UHGV virus genome: UHGV-0103155
Reading direction: 5' to 3' (one strand)
DNA from: a virus
Length of the DNA: 39,184 nt
Part shown: positions 278 through 10,683 of the stretch, piece by piece
How the letters are laid out: every line of letters starts with the position of its first letter
How positions within the stretch are numbered: position 1 is the stretch's first letter
Notes under the pieces: model-generated
Database searches by the model: none
Told to the model about the DNA's origin: nothing
Seen by the model: only the letters and a program-made list of their open reading frames with translations
Program-made: the position numbers and the translations under genes

Positions 278-760
278 CTATCTGGTCAGGGTGTCGTACT
301 GTTTTTCGCAGACTCTTCCGGCTTCGGCTGCCCGGTCAGCATACTCTGCCAGTTGTCTATTTCTCTCGAGAGATTTGCTGAACACGTCGGCAAGCAAAAC
401 TCCGGTGTCTGCGGCTGACGACCCAGCGCCGACAATGGCGTTATAGTGCCTGAGCTGCTCACGGATGGCAACGAGCTGTTGCTGCAACCGGCCAGCGCGA
501 GCGGCAGCATCAAGAGCATCATTGCGCGCCTGGTCGATCCTCTGCTGCGCTTCACGTTCATTGATCGATTTCTCCTGTTCGTAGTGCTGACGAATTCTCT
601 CATCTTCGGTTTTGCGGTCTTCTTTCGCCTGTGCATACCCAGCGTCGTACTGACGACTGCCGTGCACATTCCAGGCAACAACTCCTGATATGACCAGAAC
701 AGCAAGCACCGCCATGATAATCAACTGTTTACGGTATGCTTTTACGAATGACCAGATCAT
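278..760 (-). CDS. Rz-like i-spanin
   Basis: N-terminal TM segment then long charged Gln/Arg/Glu/Ala-rich coiled-coil region; directly downstream of endolysin. Confidence 0.7.
286..561 (-). CDS. Rz1-like o-spanin (lipoprotein) in alternate frame within Rz
   Basis: Alternate-frame ORF with lipoprotein signal …MLPLALAGC and Pro/Ser-rich mature part; start placed at internal Met, uncertain. Confidence 0.5.
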   Translation of the reverse strand: MNVKRSRGSTRRAMMLLMLPLALAGCSNSSLPSVSSSGTITPLSALGRQPQTPEFCLPTCSANLSREIDNWQSMLTGQPKPEESAKNSTTP

Positions 761-1386
761 ACAGCCAGCACCTTACTGGCAGTGACGTACCGCGCGCGCC
801 GGTCGTCGATGCCATTCCTGCCACCATTGATAATCAGAGTTACACGTGCAATATCGCCGGTATACTTCATGCAACCTTTGCTGGAGAAGAACCACGCCGC
901 GCTACGAGCCGCGTATTCGTCCTGCGCCAACAGTTCAGGATTCTCCAGCAGGTCCACTTTCAGGCCGTTTCCGCAATCACGATAGTTATTCAAACCGGTA
1001 ATCTGGATAAGTCCGCGGCCACGGTAATTCCAGCCATCGCCGGGGGCATTGTTCCCCATGCGTTTGCTGTACACCAGATTGGCAATCGCTCGCTGGCGCT
1101 CGAGTGGCAATGGTGGTTCACCAGCATGGCGACCCAGTGCATTAGCCTGCCCCTGAGTGAGACGCCCAGCCCGAACGAAGTTAGCCAGTCCGCTGACACT
1201 GTAGTTGAAATTCTCCTGCAACCTGGTGAAGCCCCCAGACTCATGCCCGACTTGAGCAATAAACATTGCCTGATCTTCTGCTTTGCTGATACCAAACTCT
1301 TTCATCGCAGAAGTTATATGCGAGAACCAGCGTGCGGCCAGCGCCTCGCTAATACCAGCAGCTCGCTGGAATTGTTTAATCTCCAT
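757..1386 (-). CDS. Endolysin, glycoside hydrolase family 19 (chitinase-like lysozyme)
   Basis: Motifs [21 protein letters not shown] typical of GH19 phage endolysins; start set at internal ATG (MEIKQFQ…) preceded by GAGG. Confidence 0.85.
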
Positions 1387-1684
1387 GTTTAGACCTCGAT
1401 ATTTTGAAAATCTGAACAACGTTACCGCGTGTTTTAATAACCGCGGCAAGCATGACAGCGTTGATAATGACCTCAGATAAATCCACAGCCATTGGCGTGC
1501 GTAACCAGATTGCATAGACGACACGAACAGGAATACTGGCCGCAGCAACAATAAGGAAATAAGCAAGCCACCCTCCCCATCTTCGATGTTGAGAGCCGTT
1601 ACGCCGGAATGTGACAACGCGAATTGCTATGCCAGTACAAATAACTGCATTGGTGATAAGCAAAAAAAACTCATGCGTTACCAT
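1376..1684 (-). CDS. Small membrane protein, holin/antiholin-like
   Basis: About 100 aa with three hydrophobic segments and charged C-terminus; overlaps endolysin start. Confidence 0.5.
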
Positions 1685-2084
1685 CGTCTTTTCTCCCCGG
1701 AATTAAATCGCGTGGATTGTCTGAACGGTGGTAGAGCCATATACCAATACGCACAGCGACAATTGCTGACACGAATGCGCCAGCAGAGAAAACAATCCCT
1801 TTTTCAAAAGAGTCCTGCGTGATGGTAGGGATCAGGCTGGCTATGCCGATAAGAATTGATGCTGCTGGTTTGTAGAAAAGAAGTCCACAGAGAAAGCTAA
1901 GCATCGATAAGAGTACGCGACGATGAATTGGGTACTCTACCGCAGAGGTAACAAAAATTACCGCACCAGCAAGAGCACCGAGCGCCACCTCTGGCGGAAC
2001 GCCTACGATAACTGCAGCAAGAGAGCTCACACTAAGCCATTGATTTAAAGAATCAGTAGTTAGATGGGCTGACATAATGAACAC
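1671..2084 (-). CDS. Small polytopic membrane protein, holin-like
   Basis: About 135 aa, four hydrophobic helices, charged C-terminal tail; between tailspike and endolysin. Confidence 0.5.
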   Translation of the reverse strand: MFIMSAHLTTDSLNQWLSVSSLAAVIVGVPPEVALGALAGAVIFVTSAVEYPIHRRVLLSMLSFLCGLLFYKPAASILIGIASLIPTITQDSFEKGIVFSAGAFVSAIVAVRIGIWLYHRSDNPRDLIPGRKDDGNA

Positions 2085-2304: not shown

Positions 2305-5061
2305 TTAGCTACTTTCAAGCATTGCAAGACGTGATTCTATTTTTTCGATTCTTCTACGCAAATAAGCTGACTCAAGCCATAAACACTGGTCAGTACGGAT
2401 ACCCCACCTATTTCCAGCATTGCAAACCAGAGTTCGCTCTTCTGTTTCGTATTCTTCTTCCATCTCAATTTCGACGCCATCCACAACTTTAGTGATCATC
2501 CTTACCGCCATCACTGGCGCGTATTTATCATCCCATTCATCGTAACAGAGAAGGCCAAATCTGGTTCCATCAATCCCATGCGCGAGGAAAGTGTCTCTCA
2601 CTTGTTGTGCTATAACACCAAAATGCCAGCGGGCACCATCTCCCTTTTCCCTGACGGCATCAAGCCAGCGAAAAGCTACAATCCTGATATCTCCCCATGC
2701 ATCCAGAATTGCATCACCTTCATAACCACGAGACATATACAAGCTGAGCTCACTTGTACTAATCGGTTCACTTTTTTCTCTACCATCTGATGTGTTTATC
2801 GAACCGTTCGCAGAATAAACCTGTGCCCATCTAAATGATGGTGCACCAAGAGATTTGCTGTTATCAATAATTGGTGAAAAATTACCTTTAATGGCAATAT
2901 TTCCAGAGTCGCCGAATATATTAATAACTGCAGAGTCATCACCATGGTTTTTTACGCTTAAGTTTCTTGATGAAATATTTATATCTTTGTTATATCCACT
3001 AACATTAATCCATCTTTTACCATCAATGTGATACCCGTAAATATTTCCGTCTGATTGTTCGTCAGGTGACTCTCTAAGAACAATAGCATCTGCTCCAGAC
3101 GACCATTGTATTTTTGTATCTGTAGGCCTCCAGTTCTTTATAATGAACGAACCATCAGTAAACTCCGTTTTTATTTGTCTATTGTCTACAAATGCGTCTC
3201 TTGGTTTAAACTCACTTGTGTTAACGCTGCTCTGAAGATCAGAAGCAAAAAATCTAAGATTTCCTGTATAACCCTGAGTCTCGGTCAGGTTATACGCAAT
3301 CATAATTCCATTTTCAAACTCAGATGATGTTATTTTAACATCACGGCAATCACCAAAAATGCAATTTCCTTTATCAAATGTTGTTTGAGCTTTGAATTTA
3401 TCAAACCTTAAATTACGAACAGGGAAACCATCAACCTCTAATGCAAAGGATGCAGGAAGGCCAAAGTATTCTGATGGCTTACCTGATGTATGATCAAGAG
3501 TAGTGGCTACTGTATTCTCAAAAACAGTCCCGCTAAAATTATTACCAATTGACGGAAACCTGATTACACTTATTGTACCTTGTATTTCAGGAGAAATACC
3601 AGATAGTGTGATGTTAGCTCCATCAAATGATGCATCTGAATACGTATATACTGATTCACTGCCAGCAATTTTAAACTGTTTAACTGAAGTTATTCTCATC
3701 GACTTTTTATGTTTAAATGTCACTGAGCTTTCAGTATTACTTACAAGATCAATCTGAGGGCTATTCCTTATCGCGATCCCTGACTGGACATAAACGTTAT
3801 TAAAGTGCGTTTTTTCAGGATTTCCCTTCATTGAAAGGCTCCCGTCATTTTCTGTCAGTAGTAGTCCTTTTACCCTCCAATAGCCGACAATCTGTACGTT
3901 ATCAATAACTGAATCACAGCTATCGTATACATGCAACCCTATATCCCAGTCATCACCCAATGAATAAGAATCAGGGTTATTGTATCCTTCAATACCATTT
4001 TTACTTACCATTATTCTCAGGTTGCGTAACTGTGATGCCCTGTTGATACTAACAGCTACGCTCATGGCTTTTGGTGTAGCAGGAGTAACACCTACAGAAT
4101 CTTCATTTGTAAACTCAGTGAACTTACAAGATATCCCTTCAACAATTTTAACTGGTCTTTCATTAGAGATGTTAAAAAAATATTTGTTTTTTTCTCCATC
4201 ACCAGTAAATACAAGATGGGTTCCTTTACTCCAACTTTTTAATAATCTTTCAGGCGCTGGTCTATATGTATCCCAATAATCAATGCCATCACCAATTAAA
4301 GACACTCCAGGAGGCACATCTATGTTCTTAGAAATCATCCATTTACCTGCAGGTATTCTAACGACACTTGCACCAGAATTTATCGCATTAATTAACCATT
4401 CAGACGCATCAACTTCAAAATTTAATGCAGCATATCTTTGCTCAAACGGAACAAAATCAAGAGCGTTAACGTTATCCCGCATCTTATCCTGGAACGTTCG
4501 GTATACTGCTCCAGAACCATACTGAATAAACCAACCAAAACCACCAACAACTCCGGCGATTGCAGCATCAACATAATTGCGCATTGATCGATTATTTACA
4601 GCATCCTGCTCAAGTGATGGATCTGCAAGGTTAGAAATTTTGTTTTGCTTTGCATCGTAATATTTTGCAAGCAAAGATGGTTTCATCAATGCACGTCTGA
4701 ACCATCCAAAACATTGCTGGATCAGCATCGTCAGGTAGTCAAAGGCATCTTCATGCACTTCGGGGAAAAATTTCCCCTGATTGCGAAGGTCTGTCTCCTG
4801 CACCACATCAAGCACACGATCTATCGTAATTCGCCAGCCAGCAGCAAGCGGAGACGGAAGAACCACTGAACCGCCACTATAAGTGCCCGCCCCAGTTACC
4901 GTATAACCGGTATCCAGAACCAATTCTGTTACGTTCCCGTTCAGGTCAGACACCTGAACAACCAGGTCGGATTTTTTGAAAATACGGAAGGTATACGGAA
5001 ATGATGTCGTAGCGCCGTTACCGGTGTATTCGTTGTGGTCAACTTCGGTTGAGACCGTCAT
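2305..5061 (-). CDS. Tailspike/tail fiber receptor-binding protein with C-terminal intramolecular-chaperone-like domain
   Basis: 918 aa; N-terminal virion-anchoring type segment (…YTGNGATTSFPYTF…), long Ser/Thr/Gly/Asn-rich central region, C-terminal about 160 aa beginning SDGREK. Confidence 0.8.
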   Translation of the reverse strand: MTVSTEVDHNEYTGNGATTSFPYTFRIFKKSDLVVQVSDLNGNVTELVLDTGYTVTGAGTYSGGSVVLPSPLAAGWRITIDRVLDVVQETDLRNQGKFFPEVHEDAFDYLTMLIQQCFGWFRRALMKPSLLAKYYDAKQNKISNLADPSLEQDAVNNRSMRNYVDAAIAGVVGGFGWFIQYGSGAVYRTFQDKMRDNVNALDFVPFEQRYAALNFEVDASEWLINAINSGASVVRIPAGKWMISKNIDVPPGVSLIGDGIDYWDTYRPAPERLLKSWSKGTHLVFTGDGEKNKYFFNISNERPVKIVEGISCKFTEFTNEDSVGVTPATPKAMSVAVSINRASQLRNLRIMVSKNGIEGYNNPDSYSLGDDWDIGLHVYDSCDSVIDNVQIVGYWRVKGLLLTENDGSLSMKGNPEKTHFNNVYVQSGIAIRNSPQIDLVSNTESSVTFKHKKSMRITSVKQFKIAGSESVYTYSDASFDGANITLSGISPEIQGTISVIRFPSIGNNFSGTVFENTVATTLDHTSGKPSEYFGLPASFALEVDGFPVRNLRFDKFKAQTTFDKGNCIFGDCRDVKITSSEFENGIMIAYNLTETQGYTGNLRFFASDLQSSVNTSEFKPRDAFVDNRQIKTEFTDGSFIIKNWRPTDTKIQWSSGADAIVLRESPDEQSDGNIYGYHIDGKRWINVSGYNKDINISSRNLSVKNHGDDSAVINIFGDSGNIAIKGNFSPIIDNSKSLGAPSFRWAQVYSANGSINTSDGREKSEPISTSELSLYMSRGYEGDAILDAWGDIRIVAFRWLDAVREKGDGARWHFGVIAQQVRDTFLAHGIDGTRFGLLCYDEWDDKYAPVMAVRMITKVVDGVEIEMEEEYETEERTLVCNAGNRWGIRTDQCLWLESAYLRRRIEKIESRLAMLESS

Positions 5062-5165
5062 GTTAAATCTCCAGATAGTCGCAGCACCCGTTGCGCCGCA
5101 TATCTGGTTATTCTATTACCTGAAAAACCACATATGGATAGAAAGACTGTAAATACGAATAGATA

Positions 5166-5180
5166 TTACCTTTCGGGTAA
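5166..5180. promoter_or_regulatory. Palindromic operator-like site TTACCTTTCGGGTAA
   Basis: Perfect TTACC-N5-GGTAA upstream of LexA box and small antirepressor-type gene. Confidence 0.45.
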
Positions 5181-5217
5181 TTTGCAAAACGTGCTGGATA
5201 GCAAACAAATTATTTGC

Positions 5218-5237
5218 TACTGTATAAATATACAGTT
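5218..5237. promoter_or_regulatory. LexA box (TACTGTATAAATATACAGTT)
   Basis: CTGT-N8-ACAG with AT-rich spacer, near-consensus SOS box, about 20 bp upstream of the ATG at 5257. Confidence 0.7.
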
Positions 5238-5256
5238 ATTACATGGAGAAGATAAG

Positions 5257-5514
5257 ATGCAGCAGTATCACTATCCACTGGAAGACGGATTTACCGAAAG
5301 GATTCACACGCCGGGAGGCGTCAGGTCACTGGTGGAGGGATCGCACTTGATGAAATTACTCCGGGATCTCGATAAGGATGGATTTAATGTCGATGGCCCA
5401 CTTGCCGAACTGACTGCACTGATTAACTACGTCACCAGCTCACAGATGTCTATGCAGGATCTACAAACACATCTCGACTATTGTGCCGAACAATTACGAA
5501 AACAAACCAGATAA
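5257..5514 (+). CDS. Small antirepressor-type protein (C-terminal domain of the downstream antirepressor alone; Tum/Gifsy-antirepressor-like context)
   Basis: 85 aa from internal ATG; clearly similar to the C-terminus of the 5830-6540 product; LexA box immediately upstream. Confidence 0.55.
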   Translation: MQQYHYPLEDGFTERIHTPGGVRSLVEGSHLMKLLRDLDKDGFNVDGPLAELTALINYVTSSQMSMQDLQTHLDYCAEQLRKQTR

Positions 5515-5545
5515 GGTTTGCAATTACCAAGTGGAGTGCTTATAT

Positions 5546-5560
5546 TTACCTTTGAGGTAA
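5546..5560. promoter_or_regulatory. Palindromic operator-like site TTACCTTTGAGGTAA
   Basis: Perfect TTACC-N5-GGTAA, itself flanked by inverted repeat GGAGTGC/GCACTCC. Confidence 0.45.
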
Positions 5561-5651
5561 ATTTACAACGCACTCCTCTTATGCCATAGTAATCGGGCAC
5601 TGGCAAAATCCAGTGCCGGGATTGGCGTCCCGGGTTACTAAGTGGCGCATA

Positions 5652-5680
5652 CCACGCCAGACGTGGTTTTTTTATGCGTT
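5652..5680 (+). terminator. Rho-independent terminator
   Basis: Stem ACCACG/CGTGGT with 5-nt loop followed by T7-8 run, after the small antirepressor gene. Confidence 0.6.
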
Positions 5681-5829
5681 AAGCACAGCTATATCCGAAT
5701 TATGGTGGGCTGGGCAGGGGTCCGAAAGGACGCCGGTACCACTTAGGCCGGTACGCCAACCTTGTCCAGTTCACCACCAGTAATTGGCGTTGCGGTGGTG
5801 ATTAAAATCACTAAGTGGAGATAACCACC

Positions 5830-6540
5830 ATGGCTAATGCTCAAACTGCCATCTTCAAATTTGAATCTGTTAACCCTATCCGTTCCATCATTATCGATGG
5901 CCAACCATGGTTTGTAGCCCAAGACGTTTGTAGTGCGCTGCGTATCCAAAACGTCACCCAAGCACTTGAAAAACTGGATGATGATGAAAGGTCTATGTTC
6001 AACATAGGGCATGAACATCGTGCAATTTTTGACAGCCGAGTAAAAGAGATCAACATCATCTCCGAGTCAGGCCTCTACACACTGATCCTCCGCTGCCGCG
6101 ACGCAGTGACACCAGGCACTATCCCCTACCGCTTTCGTAAATGGGTTACAGGTGAGGTTCTTCCTCAGATCCGCCGCACCGGAAGTTACATTAAAAACTC
6201 GCTCCCGCAGGAAGAACGCATAAAGATGGTTGCCGACCAGGTAGCCAACGCCACGGCGTCAGCAGTAATGCAGGCGATGAAGATAGAGAACAAAACCTAC
6301 AGCGCCCCGCTGAAGCCCGGCTACCGCAGCCTGATTCACTCGCCGTCTGGTGTTCTCGGCCTGACGGAGAACTCACTGCTGATGAATCTGCTGAACCAGT
6401 TACAGGACGACGGGCACGACGTATCGGGCGCGGCGGCGGAGCTGACCACCATGTTCTGCTACATCGTCGGTGTGAGTAAATGCCTGCGTGATATCCAGAC
6501 CCACGCGGAATACATCAACGACAAAGCAGGGTTCTTCTGA
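5830..6540 (+). CDS. Antirepressor, Bro-N domain family with Ant-like C-terminal domain
   Basis: N-terminal region resembles Bro-N/phage antirepressor domains; C-terminal domain paralogous to 5257-5514; GGAG before ATG. Confidence 0.75.
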   Translation: MANAQTAIFKFESVNPIRSIIIDGQPWFVAQDVCSALRIQNVTQALEKLDDDERSMFNIGHEHRAIFDSRVKEINIISESGLYTLILRCRDAVTPGTIPYRFRKWVTGEVLPQIRRTGSYIKNSLPQEERIKMVADQVANATASAVMQAMKIENKTYSAPLKPGYRSLIHSPSGVLGLTENSLLMNLLNQLQDDGHDVSGAAAELTTMFCYIVGVSKCLRDIQTHAEYINDKAGFF

Positions 6541-6610
6541 CAGCGGCGGCACAGGGATGTGCCTTTAAATAATTCTGTACGATTGCAGACTGGGGGTGAA
6601 TAGCGTACTA

Positions 6611-6625
6611 TTACCTCAAGGGTAA
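6611..6625. promoter_or_regulatory. Palindromic operator-like site TTACCTCAAGGGTAA
   Basis: Perfect TTACC-N5-GGTAA about 60 bp upstream of the 6685 start. Confidence 0.45.
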
Positions 6626-6684
6626 GAAAGCATTTTTAATCTTCCCTTCAAAACGCGTCCTGTAGCCAAACATGGGAGGACGAA

Positions 6685-7317
6685 ATGAGAACAAATACAA
6701 CAAGAAAAGCGATGCCATACATTATCCCAGAAGCAGATTTCGATAGAAAACTGAACATGTCTGAGAAGAACACTAGTCACACCGAAAGCTACTTAGCGAA
6801 AGGTGTGGTTGATTTCGTTCTTCCGGGATTCACAACACCTTATGGTTATCGCCTTGTAAAATCTTGTAATGGCGATCATTACAGAATGATTACTACCAGC
6901 GATACTCCAGAAACGGTGTATGCGGTTAAGTTAATCTTTCGGGAAGATATCGTCGAAGCCAAAAGAACATGTACGCAGATCATGGTATGGCGTACGCCTA
7001 ATGTTATTCATGACCGTGCTGTTCATGGTTTGCCTCAGATTTTTTTTCAGTTCTTCCTAGAGCAATATGCGATCGTTGTATCTGATGAGCAACAAACAAT
7101 CGATGGGAGAAGATTCTGGGAAAGAATGATTTCTTGGGCTATAAACACCCCAGGATATAATGTATACGTTTCAGATGGCTCTGAAGAAGATAGACCTCTT
7201 AGCTTCATGACATCATGGGATGATTTCTATAGCCAGTGGGCTGATTTCTGTTGGGGCAGTGATAAAGATGTGCATACCCACAGACTACTGGTTATAAGCA
7301 AAGATAAACTGCATTAA
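6685..7317 (+). CDS. Hypothetical protein, AT-rich single-gene cargo (moron)
   Basis: 210-aa ORF with strong GGAGGA RBS, own upstream operator-like site and downstream terminator; Trp/Phe/Tyr-rich; no family recognised. Confidence 0.6.
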   Translation: MRTNTTRKAMPYIIPEADFDRKLNMSEKNTSHTESYLAKGVVDFVLPGFTTPYGYRLVKSCNGDHYRMITTSDTPETVYAVKLIFREDIVEAKRTCTQIMVWRTPNVIHDRAVHGLPQIFFQFFLEQYAIVVSDEQQTIDGRRFWERMISWAINTPGYNVYVSDGSEEDRPLSFMTSWDDFYSQWADFCWGSDKDVHTHRLLVISKDKLH

Positions 7318-7320
7318 TAG

Positions 7321-7345
7321 AAGCCCGCAGCGCGGGCTTTTTTGT
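7321..7345 (+). terminator. Rho-independent terminator
   Basis: Stem AGCCCGC/GCGGGCT then TTTTTTG. Confidence 0.6.
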
Positions 7346-7415
7346 GGACGAAACAAAAGTCAGTGCTACACTCATTGACGCCACATTGAGGTGGCTTATA
7401 GATGGAAATTTCACA

Positions 7416-7577
7416 ATGAAAAAAGCATTTGCTGCACTGTTCGTTTTGTTGTCTCTGGTAGCTTCAACTCAGGCCTTTGCCGGTCGTTGTCAGCACGACA
7501 GCGACACTGCTGCTGACGGCTCCCGCTGCGGTGGGCGTTCTGCGGATTCCCGCCCGGGTGGCGGTGGCATTCGTTAA
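7416..7577 (+). CDS. Small secreted peptide (53 aa, signal peptide plus about 31-aa Gly/Ser/Asp-rich mature part with 2 Cys)
   Basis: Internal ATG (MKKAFAALFVLLSLVASTQAFA…) with classical signal peptide; possible promoter TTGACG upstream; small-ORF call is tentative. Confidence 0.35.
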   Translation: MKKAFAALFVLLSLVASTQAFAGRCQHDSDTAADGSRCGGRSADSRPGGGGIR

Positions 7578-7579
7578 AA

Positions 7580-7598
7580 ACAAGGCCGCGAAAGCGGC
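7580..7598 (-). terminator. Hairpin GGCCGC-GAAA-GCGGCC with T-run on minus strand
   Basis: Perfect 6-bp GC stem; T-rich tract follows in minus-strand orientation, downstream of lipoprotein gene. Confidence 0.5.
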
Positions 7599-7600
7599 CT

Positions 7601-7612
7601 GTGACATGTCAC
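7601..7612. promoter_or_regulatory. 12-bp perfect palindrome GTGACATGTCAC (copy 1 of 3)
   Basis: Exact sequence also at about 25278 and 27542; sits where plus-strand cargo genes converge on the minus-strand lipoprotein gene end. Confidence 0.5.
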
Positions 7613-7989
7613 GCAACGCAATTATTACCGCGCCATGTAACATTTTTAATAATCTTATCAGCACCAAACTCAACGTAAACAGAGCAACTGAAATGGAGTG
7701 TATAACCGCCATCAGTTGTTGCGTATGTGTTTGAATATATAGTATTACCAATTAGATTAGACGTAGTATTATACGTTGTGGTTTGTGGTACGTTATAACT
7801 ACCAGAGCTTGAGTAAACATACACTCTGTTTCCATCTGGAGATGTAAGCTCTCCCTGAGGATACCCCCACTGCTGAACCATTGCGTCTATACTCTGCCCG
7901 CGCCACGTAAGCATATTTCTTTCAAACTGTGCAGCTGACTGGCATCCAACGAGAAGCATAAATCCAAAAATCAAAAATACTTTTCTCAT
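7609..7989 (-). CDS. Lipoprotein, function unknown (possible surface-modifying or superinfection-exclusion cargo)
   Basis: Signal peptide with lipobox LLVGC (MRKVFLIFGFMLLVGC…); Thr/Ser/Asn/Tyr-rich mature region; AT-rich gene. Confidence 0.6.
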   Translation of the reverse strand: MRKVFLIFGFMLLVGCQSAAQFERNMLTWRGQSIDAMVQQWGYPQGELTSPDGNRVYVYSSSGSYNVPQTTTYNTTSNLIGNTIYSNTYATTDGGYTLHFSCSVYVEFGADKIIKNVTWRGNNCVA

Positions 7990-8208
7990 AATTACCCCTA
8001 TCATGGAAAAACAGCACCAATCCACAAATTAACTAGTTATTTTATTATTCTTCCGAACAATACAATTCCGAATACTACAAAGCCGAACCATGCCGCTGCA
8101 CGCAACAGAGATTCCAATTGAAACCCATTTTTATCAAAATGTATGAATAGCATAAAAACGCTGCACATATTAGTACAATAAAAGTTATTTGAACCATCAT
8201 ATCTCCTT

Positions 8209-10683
8209 TTATTGCGGAGTGACATCCTGTGGTCGCCACCAGTATGTCTGGTTAAACTCTTTCTTCGAACGTTGCTCCATTTTACGTAAATAGCCTGGTG
8301 AAAAATACTCCTGCATCTGGTTAAAGATCATGTGATCGAGAGCCGCCTTCAAGTACCAGAGATTCGCACCAGGCATCAAACCTTTCCCCAGCTTCACCAG
8401 ATCACCACCAGTCTGCTCACTCTTCCCTTCCACAGCATTTAACGGTATGCCCTGAGCAATCTTCACTACGTCATCAACCAGACCAGCTACCGGGCCAAGC
8501 ATCGACGCCAGCGCGCCGCTTCCGTACCTAGTGTGATCTGACAATAAAAAGTCACCGTAAAGGCCAAGACCACCACCTTTCAGTAGAGCACCAAGCCAGA
8601 ATTTTGCGGCATCTTCTCCTGTCATCTCTCGAGGATTACGACCAGACGCAAGGTCGTTAAGTTGCTGCGACAAAGCGCCAAGAATGGTCGTACTGGCAAT
8701 AAACGTCGCAATATATGCCGCACGCCCACCAGCAGACGGCATACCCATAGCGCGTGACCAGTGACGCATAACAACCGAGATAGGGAACGATTTAAACAGG
8801 AAAACACTTCTCGTTAATTCACCTTTCCATGTTCCACGCTGAATACCAGAACCGGTTATCAGTTGCTCACGTGCTCCCGGTGTAATAACAGCCATATCAA
8901 CTTCTTCAGTTACGGCACCGAGCAGTTTACGCATTGCCTCAAATTTCACGCGTTCAGGCTCACCAAGATGTTTAACTGCTGAATCAGGGATACGCATAAT
9001 GCTTTCCGGTGTCAGCATCATATTATTACCGTTCCCCCAGTCCTCCTGTTTCGCCAGCTTCCATACGCTCCAGTCTGTGTCAGTAATCCCTTTGCTTTTC
9101 AGGATACGAAAATCAGAGTCATCGAGGCTACGAAGGTCTGGTGTCCGTGACACTACTTCTCCCAGGCTTCCCATCATGGTTACGCCATAGGCGCGCTTGT
9201 GCGCATCTGACCATGCTGTAAGCCCACTGGCACGCATTACCGCCGTTGCCGCCCAACGAGACACTGACGGCCCCATATTATCCATCGCCCAGCGGTTAAC
9301 GCTGCCAAGTAGAGATTCCATCGCCAGACCAGCGCGGCGCGCCCGCGCAAGTTCTGTACGGTTCGTTGGGTCCATAGCTTCAAGCTGGTTGCGGAATAAC
9401 TGGTTCATTGGAAGGTTGGTAACCTTCGCAGACAGATACATGGTTCCAAGATCAGAGAACGATGACAGCAACGCGGATCCGAGTCTGCTGGCAACCAGCC
9501 AGTTGCGGATATTGTCAGACCATCGCGCGATGTGCGGATTCGCTACAGGCTGTGTCTTTCCGGAAATAAAGTTGTACAGATTCTCTGTGTTGTTCGCCAG
9601 CCGCTCGACTTTACCGGTTTTACTCGGGTTAGCTGTTGCCGTTTCTGCCTTCACCTGATCAAGAAGAGAGCGGAAAACATGATCGGGGTTTGGGCCATAT
9701 GTTTCCACCAGTGCAATATCTTTACTGATACCTTCCAGGTGACCGACCATGATTTCCCATAGAGAGCGATCGCCATAAAGTTGCTGATATTGCAGATAGG
9801 AATCTGCATCTTTGAAATGTATCTGTCGTGATGCATTACCACGGTTAGCACGTGCGCCGGAAATTCGCATTCCGGTATCAGTAAGCTTATTCAGCCCACC
9901 AGTAGCGATCGTGTTATAAGCCTCTCCAAGAAATGAAGACAACTCGGCATCGTTCATCAGTTGTCCATCGGCTCGGATATAATATTTGCGATCCAGCTTA
10001 CCTATAACATCGCTAACCCACTTATCCTTTGATACTGCCCCAACCTTTTCCATAGAATGATGTTGAGGGATCCCCCAGTTTTCGAGATAGCCAATGTCCC
10101 CACCAGCATCATTAAACCGGCGGCGCAGCAGCTCTGTAACTTCTCTCCACGCCTTAGCACCGTTTCTTGCTTTAGCATTGCCAGTATTTTGCCCCCGCAT
10201 TTCATATACCAGGTCACGTACGCCCGCTTCATCTTCAAACAGACCAAAAAAGCGAGGATCAACTGCTTCGAATGCCTCCTGCAATTGACTCAATGCATAA
10301 TCACGGGTGGCTTTTGTTCTGGATTCAACAGAGAGGAAATTAGATTTACCGTCTGCATTAAAAGCTATAGTACGGTTAAGAGCGCCAAGTTTCCCATCAG
10401 CCCCTTGATAGCTATTGATAAATTTATCCAATCTCTGACGCGCGGCTATAGTGAGAGCCACACGACGTTTCTTTAATGCCGCTTCTCGCTGTAATTCTTC
10501 AGATGCCAATTGTGCTGCTCGATATAGCCGCTCTGATTCGGAAAGTTGTCGCCACGATATAGGGTCATCACGAGCAATGGAGCGCATATTTCGATAAATG
10601 CGGTCTTCAATGTTCTGTATTTCTCGCGCCGTTAACGTGCGCTGCGCCGCCTGCTGGACCGCTTGTATACATTCCTGTCTCAT
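8209..10683 (-). CDS. Large internal virion / DNA-ejection protein
   Basis: 824 aa, one of three consecutive large ORFs between tail-tube genes and tailspike, position equivalent to T7 gp15/gp16 core proteins. Confidence 0.55.
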   Translation of the reverse strand: MRQECIQAVQQAAQRTLTAREIQNIEDRIYRNMRSIARDDPISWRQLSESERLYRAAQLASEELQREAALKKRRVALTIAARQRLDKFINSYQGADGKLGALNRTIAFNADGKSNFLSVESRTKATRDYALSQLQEAFEAVDPRFFGLFEDEAGVRDLVYEMRGQNTGNAKARNGAKAWREVTELLRRRFNDAGGDIGYLENWGIPQHHSMEKVGAVSKDKWVSDVIGKLDRKYYIRADGQLMNDAELSSFLGEAYNTIATGGLNKLTDTGMRISGARANRGNASRQIHFKDADSYLQYQQLYGDRSLWEIMVGHLEGISKDIALVETYGPNPDHVFRSLLDQVKAETATANPSKTGKVERLANNTENLYNFISGKTQPVANPHIARWSDNIRNWLVASRLGSALLSSFSDLGTMYLSAKVTNLPMNQLFRNQLEAMDPTNRTELARARRAGLAMESLLGSVNRWAMDNMGPSVSRWAATAVMRASGLTAWSDAHKRAYGVTMMGSLGEVVSRTPDLRSLDDSDFRILKSKGITDTDWSVWKLAKQEDWGNGNNMMLTPESIMRIPDSAVKHLGEPERVKFEAMRKLLGAVTEEVDMAVITPGAREQLITGSGIQRGTWKGELTRSVFLFKSFPISVVMRHWSRAMGMPSAGGRAAYIATFIASTTILGALSQQLNDLASGRNPREMTGEDAAKFWLGALLKGGGLGLYGDFLLSDHTRYGSGALASMLGPVAGLVDDVVKIAQGIPLNAVEGKSEQTGGDLVKLGKGLMPGANLWYLKAALDHMIFNQMQEYFSPGYLRKMEQRSKKEFNQTYWWRPQDVTPQ

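Follow-up and report, generated by a model that had tools for sequence, protein, structure and literature searches.

The endosialidase tailspikes of Escherichia coli K1 phages, such as those of K1F (endoNF) and of the prophage CUS-3, combine a virion anchor, an enzymatic body and a C-terminal chaperone that is cleaved off (MEROPS family S74; PDB 3gw6). CUS-3 is a temperate, P22-like prophage whose K1-specific endosialidase spike acts on a group-2 capsule (PMC5380687; PMC3046976). The spike of phiV10, a relative of epsilon15, is specific for the O157 O-antigen and has been described as an endorhamnosidase (PMC5380687). Here we describe a tailspike gene of the virus genome UHGV-0103155, a stretch of 39,184 nucleotides that is called the window in the following. 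Its product shares the modular logic and the C-terminal domain of the K1 endosialidase spikes, whereas with the tailspikes of phiV10 and epsilon15, which belong to the same virion backbone, it shares the N-terminal anchor only. The gene encodes the only tailspike of a temperate E. coli podovirus of the phiV10/epsilon15 type (Uetakevirus), and we consider it probable that the spike consists of this anchor, of a beta-helix body directed against a group-2 capsule, most probably K14, and of a self-excising S74 chaperone. Unlike the phiV10 spike, the body tracks the capsule locus of its hosts, while their O types vary.

This association became visible in the distribution of the body among bacterial genomes. 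The prophage spike of such temperate podoviruses would normally be expected to fit the surface glycan of its lysogen (PMC10408124). Chimeric BLAST queries, consisting of 1.5 kb of the body followed by a 1-kb piece of a gene under consideration from the host, were compared with 5,426 complete E. coli genomes, and the extra matches per genome were counted. The body was present in 29 complete genomes, in 13 of them in a Uetakevirus gene and in 16 in a P22-like gene, four of the genomes having two copies. The O6 wzy gene was found in 6 of these 29 carriers (154 of all genomes), O15 wzy in 3 (100 of all genomes) and O25 wzx in 6 (459 of all genomes), while 14 carriers had none of the three. Direct reading of the rfb loci, based on the wzx and wzy names given by the Prokaryotic Genome Annotation Pipeline (PGAP), assigned ECONIH2 to O6, NCCP12480 to O15 and CREC-U3 to O25; in CREC-U3 an open reading frame (ORF) of the rfb cluster, possibly O25 wzy, is marked as frameshifted. 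The carriers do not share one O serogroup, and a body that is about 99% identical occurs in at least four O types. This contradicts the preliminary description of the gene, which had named the O-antigen as the probable host polysaccharide. Because the carriers span O6, O15, O25 and other types, one O antigen cannot be the receptor, and O-antigen specificity was rejected on both the BLAST counts and the direct rfb reading.

The capsule genes gave the opposite picture. The same glycosyltransferase gene of kps region 2 was present in 28 of the 29 carriers but in only 108 of the 5,426 genomes (2%), so that the carriers share, with one exception, one capsule type. When 1 kb of this gene from ECONIH2 was appended to the body, exactly one extra match was obtained in each carrier except GF43, and the counts reconcile (141 places). 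The association has an odds ratio of 1861 with a Fisher p of 1.5e-48, a value that overstates the significance, since the carriers are not phylogenetically independent. In ECONIH2 the locus is a group-2 capsule locus of 11 genes, comprising kpsFEDUCS, three region-2 genes and kpsTM, and the directly read kps locus of the O25 carrier CREC-U3 has the same region-2 architecture as that of the O6 carrier ECONIH2. The association extends over at least four O types and over both of the unrelated prophage backbones. We infer that the target of the spike is a group-2 capsule, dependent on the kps genes and on an ATP-binding cassette (ABC) transporter, rather than the O-antigen.

Provided that this link holds, the capsule is likely K14. 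Region 2 of ECONIH2 (locus L011, 15004-19016) encodes a CatB-like O-acetyltransferase, a GalE-type 4-epimerase and a protein of 761 residues, which has an N-terminal glycosyltransferase domain of the GT-A type and is labelled 'LipB/KpsS family' by PGAP in other genomes. The K14 polysaccharide, which we take to be ->6)-beta-GalNAc-(1->5)-beta-Kdo-(2-> (GalNAc, N-acetylgalactosamine; Kdo, 3-deoxy-D-manno-octulosonate) and partly O-acetylated, would fit a set of genes for an epimerase, a bifunctional GalNAc/Kdo transferase and an acetyltransferase. The product of the published K14_8 gene also has 761 residues, of which residues 2-227 form a GT-A domain (PMC13171606 supplement), and K14 belongs to the Kdo-containing types with GT99/GT107-like Kdo transferases in their clusters (PMC13171606). 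K14 has been reported in sequence type (ST) 127 with O6:H31, in ST131 with O25:H4 and in many other lineages (PMC13171598, supplement and text), and the paper on the K14 structure concerns an O6:K14:H31 strain. The strain names JJ1886 and ECONIH2 gave no match in the supplements of the K-typing papers. The K52 capsule, the other common type that spans several lineages, was considered as well and rejected, since the published numbering of K52 genes reaches 13 compared with 11 genes in the locus found here.

The body is not confined to Uetakeviruses. Bases 774-2278 of the gene recur at about 98.8% identity (megablast) in genes annotated as 'phage tailspike protein' in other E. coli genomes, and at the protein level near identity extends from G259 to S750 with a sharp drop on both sides (BLASTP). 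The context of these genes is a P22-like prophage at argW (window 2812-4290 against 5423-7897 of locus L001). The P22-like (Lederbergvirus-type) tailspike, represented by WP_213666884 of E. coli NCCP12480 and its relatives, is about 99% identical over residues 259-750, likewise ends in an S74 domain and occurs in the same K14-type hosts, sometimes even in the same genome. It differs in its P22-type head-binding N-terminus (PF09008 in homologues), in a diverged S74 domain of its own that opens with TSDETLK, and in the integration of its prophage at argW instead of next to yfgI. An apparent difference in the integration site of the P22-like version between NCCP12480 and E50 was discarded, because reading of E50 showed argW in both. 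The 3' breakpoint of the exchanged segment lies no more than a few codons away from the T-S-D cleavage motif; since the identity ends at S750 and the P22-like S74 domain starts with TSDETLK, the junction of the exchange coincides with the predicted self-cleavage site. The G+C content also changes at the borders of the modules: the anchor has about 50%, as does the remainder of the prophage, the body 34-40% and the S74 domain 42-48%. Separate origins of the modules would agree with these steps.

Four genomes, NZ_OZ040490.1, NZ_CP019243.1 (Combat2C1), NZ_CP121153.1 (E57) and NZ_CP196906.1 (ECE170), contain two separate 1.5-kb matches of the body each, of which one presumably lies in a Uetakevirus prophage and the other in a P22-like prophage. 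If this is true, two prophages of the same receptor specificity coexist, which argues against receptor-based exclusion. Strain O15_8X (NZ_CM182542.1, 1284277-1286222) carries, besides its P22-like copy, a Uetakevirus-type tailspike gene whose identity is only 81.7% over gene bases 1-1946; this gene represents a diverged form of the body, present in one host together with the P22-like copy.

The C-terminal domain is, on sequence criteria, a clear member of the Peptidase_S74 family. The preliminary description had noticed that the last roughly 160 residues open with the Ser/Lys motif SDGREK and had suspected in them a self-processing chaperone of the S74 type. The motif is present, with S758 and K763 and with 161 residues from S758 to the end, although the spacing S-x4-K is in itself no evidence, because the protein contains it three times, with chance alone predicting about four occurrences. 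The family assignment was confirmed by the profile hidden Markov model search, in which PF13884 (Peptidase_S74, 'chaperone of endosialidase') matched residues 758-829 with 40.6 bits, the gathering score being 22 (Pfam). In a phmmer search, the intramolecular chaperone of the K1F endosialidase (PDB 3gw6) matched residues 709-917 (E=6.4e-34), and both the dyad and the HFGVIAQ core are aligned. In this alignment K763 stands opposite a Lys and S758 opposite an Ala of the construct, which presumably is the S911A mutant with K916 as its Lys. Further PDB matches with an S74 domain were 9vvr, phi29 gp12 (3gud), T5 pb1 (4uw8), 7y5s and 6eu4.

Conservation and structure prediction point in the same direction. 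In an alignment of 37 homologues with 31-78% identity, T757, S758, K763, H813, G815 and Q819 are each unchanged in 36 sequences, A818 in 35 and D759 in 34, and PF13884 is absent from the precomputed Pfam domains of the single homologue without the dyad residues. The six best Foldseek matches of the full-length AlphaFold2 model were all chains of 3gw6 (E=5e-12, probability 1.0), and 3gud and 4uw8 were found too; the template-modelling (TM) scores of the domain were low, a monomer model being compared with an intertwined trimer. In the neck upstream of the dyad, R744 aligns with an Arg of the K1F protein in 3gw6 and is kept in 26 of the 37 homologues, and W745 is kept in 36. PF12219 (End_tail_spike) matched residues 715-757 weakly (E=0.0027, below the cut-off), and in the monomer model the neck has low confidence values (predicted local distance difference test), as expected for a trimeric stalk. 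These similarities suggest that the protein cleaves itself through S758 and K763, with predicted products of 83.8 and 18.6 kDa. Both the role of the Ser/Lys dyad and the idea of a folding sensor have been put forward previously (PMC3742443).

The central region had been expected to resemble a beta-helical depolymerase, and this held up. A separate model of residues 195-757 revealed a right-handed parallel beta-helix like those of tailspike depolymerases, belonging to the pectate-lyase-3 type; the Foldseek search with the full-length model gave the body low TM-scores only. The fold is unrelated to the sialidase beta-propeller of the K1 endosialidases, whose substrate is polysialic acid in place of the K14-type capsule suggested here and whose anchor is not of the epsilon15/phiV10 type. 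The K5 lyase KflA (PDB 2x3h) and the beta-helix capsule depolymerases of Klebsiella and Acinetobacter phages are only 8-16% identical, so that neither a lyase nor a hydrolase mechanism can be transferred from them, and none of those with a known specificity is close to the body. At least four kinds of N-terminal adaptors precede homologues of the body, namely PF09008 (P22-like), PF18668, PF03906 (T7-like) and the Uetakevirus type, and these homologues are almost always fused to an S74 domain. A single protein cluster with this body, P0001, comprises 654 members. Relatives in isolated phages are few and comprise SD2 (62%), Vectrevirus DIJ06P1 (53%) and Phi05_1387 B, which has essentially the same gene. 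Vectrevirus is a genus that includes K1-capsule-specific phages; no literature was found on the phages DIJ06P1 or LF31P3. In the homologue alignment, the acidic residues D373, D406, E416, E542, D563, D574 and E583 are invariant and D370 and E404 nearly so, which makes these nine residues candidates for catalysis or binding.

A number of observations weigh against a K14-specific depolymerase. The capsule link is correlative, and some of the carriers are clonal, for example four near-identical CREC/CRKP genomes and the three genomes E20, E50 and E67. The carrier GF43 (NZ_CP172127.1, from chicken meat) is without the K14-type region-2 gene and has none of the O6, O15 and O25 genes either. The annotation marks the region-2 genes of CREC-U3 as broken, the glycosyltransferase gene being split into two ORFs and galE containing an internal stop (locus L013; NZ_CP200005.1, 1153575-1157595), which may reflect a loss of the capsule in the lysogen or, equally, an error of long-read sequencing. 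The label K14 is based on gene length, domain content and epidemiology and not on a comparison with a K14 reference sequence. Regarding the enzyme, PF12708 does not match the window protein at E<=1, a match that many homologues at 45-73% identity carry among their precomputed domains; the solved relatives of the body have at most 17% identity, a hydrolase is indistinguishable from a lyase and the catalytic residues are not assignable. These points would leave room for another receptor. The tailspikes of Uetakevirus and Lederbergvirus are generally specific for O-antigens, and those of prophages usually match the O type of the host (PMC10408124), so the body might be an O-antigen depolymerase as in phiV10 (O157), epsilon15, P22 and HK620, which would then name the O serogroup of its host. 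O6 is indeed mildly enriched (6 of 29 carriers versus 2.8% overall, p=1e-4), but this is expected from the link of K14 with O6:H31/ST127, and the most frequent O type accounts for at most 21% of the carriers compared with 97% for one capsule gene, which makes this explanation very improbable. Another glycan linked to the lineages, such as colanic acid, enterobacterial common antigen, the lipopolysaccharide (LPS) core or a capsule other than K14, or a body that binds without degrading, is unlikely as well. Apart from the correlative nature of the link, the one carrier without the gene and the lack of assigned catalytic residues, it can draw on Pas et al. (PMC10408124), who found that some tailspike subtypes of Uetakevirus extend across several serogroups and suggested a receptor, left unnamed, other than the O-antigen. 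However, colanic acid, the common antigen and the core types would not produce such an excess in the carriers (28 of 29, compared with 108 of 5,426 genomes), because they are far more widespread than 2%; the probe gene lies in region 2, the serotype-determining part of the kps locus; and the K52 version of this explanation disagrees with gene numbers that reach K52_13.

The self-cleavage can be weighed in the same way. Since R744 is kept in only 26 of the 37 homologues and a 12-residue insertion follows the dyad in comparison with K1F, one could regard the C-terminal domain as a degenerate S74 relic, which escapes cleavage and either aids folding or remains on the spike as a distal binding domain. 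Against this stands the retention of Ser, Lys and the HFGVIAQ core in 36 of the 37 homologues over their whole range of identity. Moreover, in the P22-like version the whole domain is swapped precisely at the T-S-D junction for one with its own TSDETLK motif, as would be expected if the mature spike keeps only the part upstream of the Ser. We therefore regard a relic as quite improbable and favor a cleaved chaperone.

A spike of this architecture might work as follows. The precursor with a computed mass of 102.4 kDa would trimerise with the aid of its C-terminal domain. Once the trimer has formed, S758, activated by K763, would attack the peptide bond in front of it, and the 18.6-kDa domain would depart from a mature subunit of 83.8 kDa (~84 kDa). 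The anchor (residues 1 to ~205) would attach the trimer to the tail, and the body (residues ~206-730) would bind and most probably depolymerise the host surface polysaccharide. By binding and cutting the capsule, the spikes would allow the short-tailed virion to tunnel to the outer membrane. The likeliest chemistry would be an endo-glycanase (hydrolase) cleavage of the K14 backbone; hydrolysis appears likelier than beta-elimination, because K14, in the structure assumed above, has no 4-linked uronic acid. Older work is said to have described the hydrolysis of Kdo ketosidic linkages by phage enzymes acting on other capsules of E. coli; the literature searched yielded only references of the phiK5/phiK20 type.

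The remaining parts of the window place the phage among the Uetakeviruses. Uetakeviruses phiv142-3, the O157 typing phages 9 and 10, PAS61, ZX5 and HEMP4 cover 83-89% of window positions 8000-32000 at 97-98% identity, and phiV10 matches 78% of this region at 97.5% identity, so that a genus-type N-terminal anchor is found inside a Uetakevirus genome backbone. The anchor consists of a small beta domain (residues ~8-82) and a linker predicted, at low confidence, to be helical. Its DNA, from gene base 1 to ~540 or 610, is 94-97% identical to the tail-fibre genes of phiv142-3, ZX5 and HEMP4; the DNA similarity to tailspike genes of Uetakevirus-like phages ends after gene bases ~173-610. Many PHROG tail families match only residues 1 to ~165 or 203, and the N-terminal domain of PDB 28lx/8ck1 matches residues 1-180 (E=5.6e-32). 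In E. coli ECONIH2 the same prophage adjoins yfgI. The tailspike copy of this strain (NZ_CP014667.1; positions 6001-8757 of locus L002) is called a pseudogene 'missing C-terminus' by PGAP. This label was rejected, as direct comparison showed an intact ORF of 918 codons with four amino-acid differences from the window; the call is an annotation artefact. All features are listed in Table 1. Upstream of the spike, between it and the tail genes, lies a block of small accessory ORFs (window 5134-8025). Among the ORFs flanking the tailspike, no gene for an O-antigen- or capsule-modifying enzyme (acyltransferase or similar) was detected by Pfam, and a scan for promoters and terminators around the gene gave nothing usable.

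Table 1. Features of the tailspike gene and its surroundings (positions in the window; residue numbers refer to the tailspike protein).
Feature	Position	Strand	Evidence and remarks
Tailspike gene	2305..5061	-	918 codons and stop; ORF list; PHROG 1171 'tail spike protein', residues 1-917, E=1e-299
N-terminal virion anchor, residues 1-~205, Uetakevirus/epsilon15 type	4447..5061	-	DNA identity; PHROG and PDB matches
Receptor-binding/enzymatic body (putative), residues ~206-730	2872..4446	-	Right-handed parallel beta-helix, then beta-rich distal part
Exchanged cassette, residues 258-750	2812..4290	-	Near-identical to body of P22-like prophage tailspike (megablast, BLASTP)
Neck/stalk, residues 731-757	2791..2871	-	Leads to predicted cleavage site; contains R744, 14 residues before S758; 3gw6 match
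Predicted self-cleavage motif S758-D-G-R-E-K763	2773..2790	-	Translation; 3gw6 alignment; cleavage expected just before S758
C-terminal intramolecular chaperone/Peptidase_S74, residues 758-918, 18.6 kDa	2308..2790	-	PF13884; PDB matches; Foldseek; predicted release after trimer folding
Lysis cassette	278-2084	-	Directly downstream of tailspike; Phage_holin_8, three-transmembrane (3TM) holin, GH19 endolysin, DUF2514 protein (Pfam)
BRO-N domain protein	5815-6540	+	Accessory block
210-residue ORF	6685-7317	+	Accessory block; without Pfam match
Likely lipoprotein	7609-8025	-	Accessory block; signal-peptide/Cys motif

The combination of an S74 chaperone with a beta-helix is already well known and in itself ordinary, and on this structural side the preliminary description was right, whereas its O-antigen receptor was not compatible with the range of hosts. 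What adds value is the probable K14 specificity. In extraintestinal E. coli, K14 counts as one of the commonest K types and as one of those most closely associated with invasion (PMC13171598; PMC13171606), and no sequence of a K14 depolymerase was found in the literature searched. On balance, we lean towards regarding this body as possibly the first sequence-defined K14 depolymerase of E. coli, carried as a portable cassette by two unrelated lineages of temperate podoviruses, with the T-S-D...K motif serving both as processing site and as exchange boundary. Once cloned, a K14 depolymerase would be of use in capsule typing, in the retargeting of phages or tailocins and as an enzyme against virulence.

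For prophage spikes of the Uetakevirus and P22-like types, the O type of the host is often assumed to be the receptor; this assumption fails here, and the K type fits. The K14-type capsule would provide a concrete candidate receptor for the multi-serogroup Uetakevirus spike subtypes described by Pas et al. (PMC10408124). If our reading is correct, the Uetakeviruses, which are usually treated as O-antigen phages, would include capsule-specific members.

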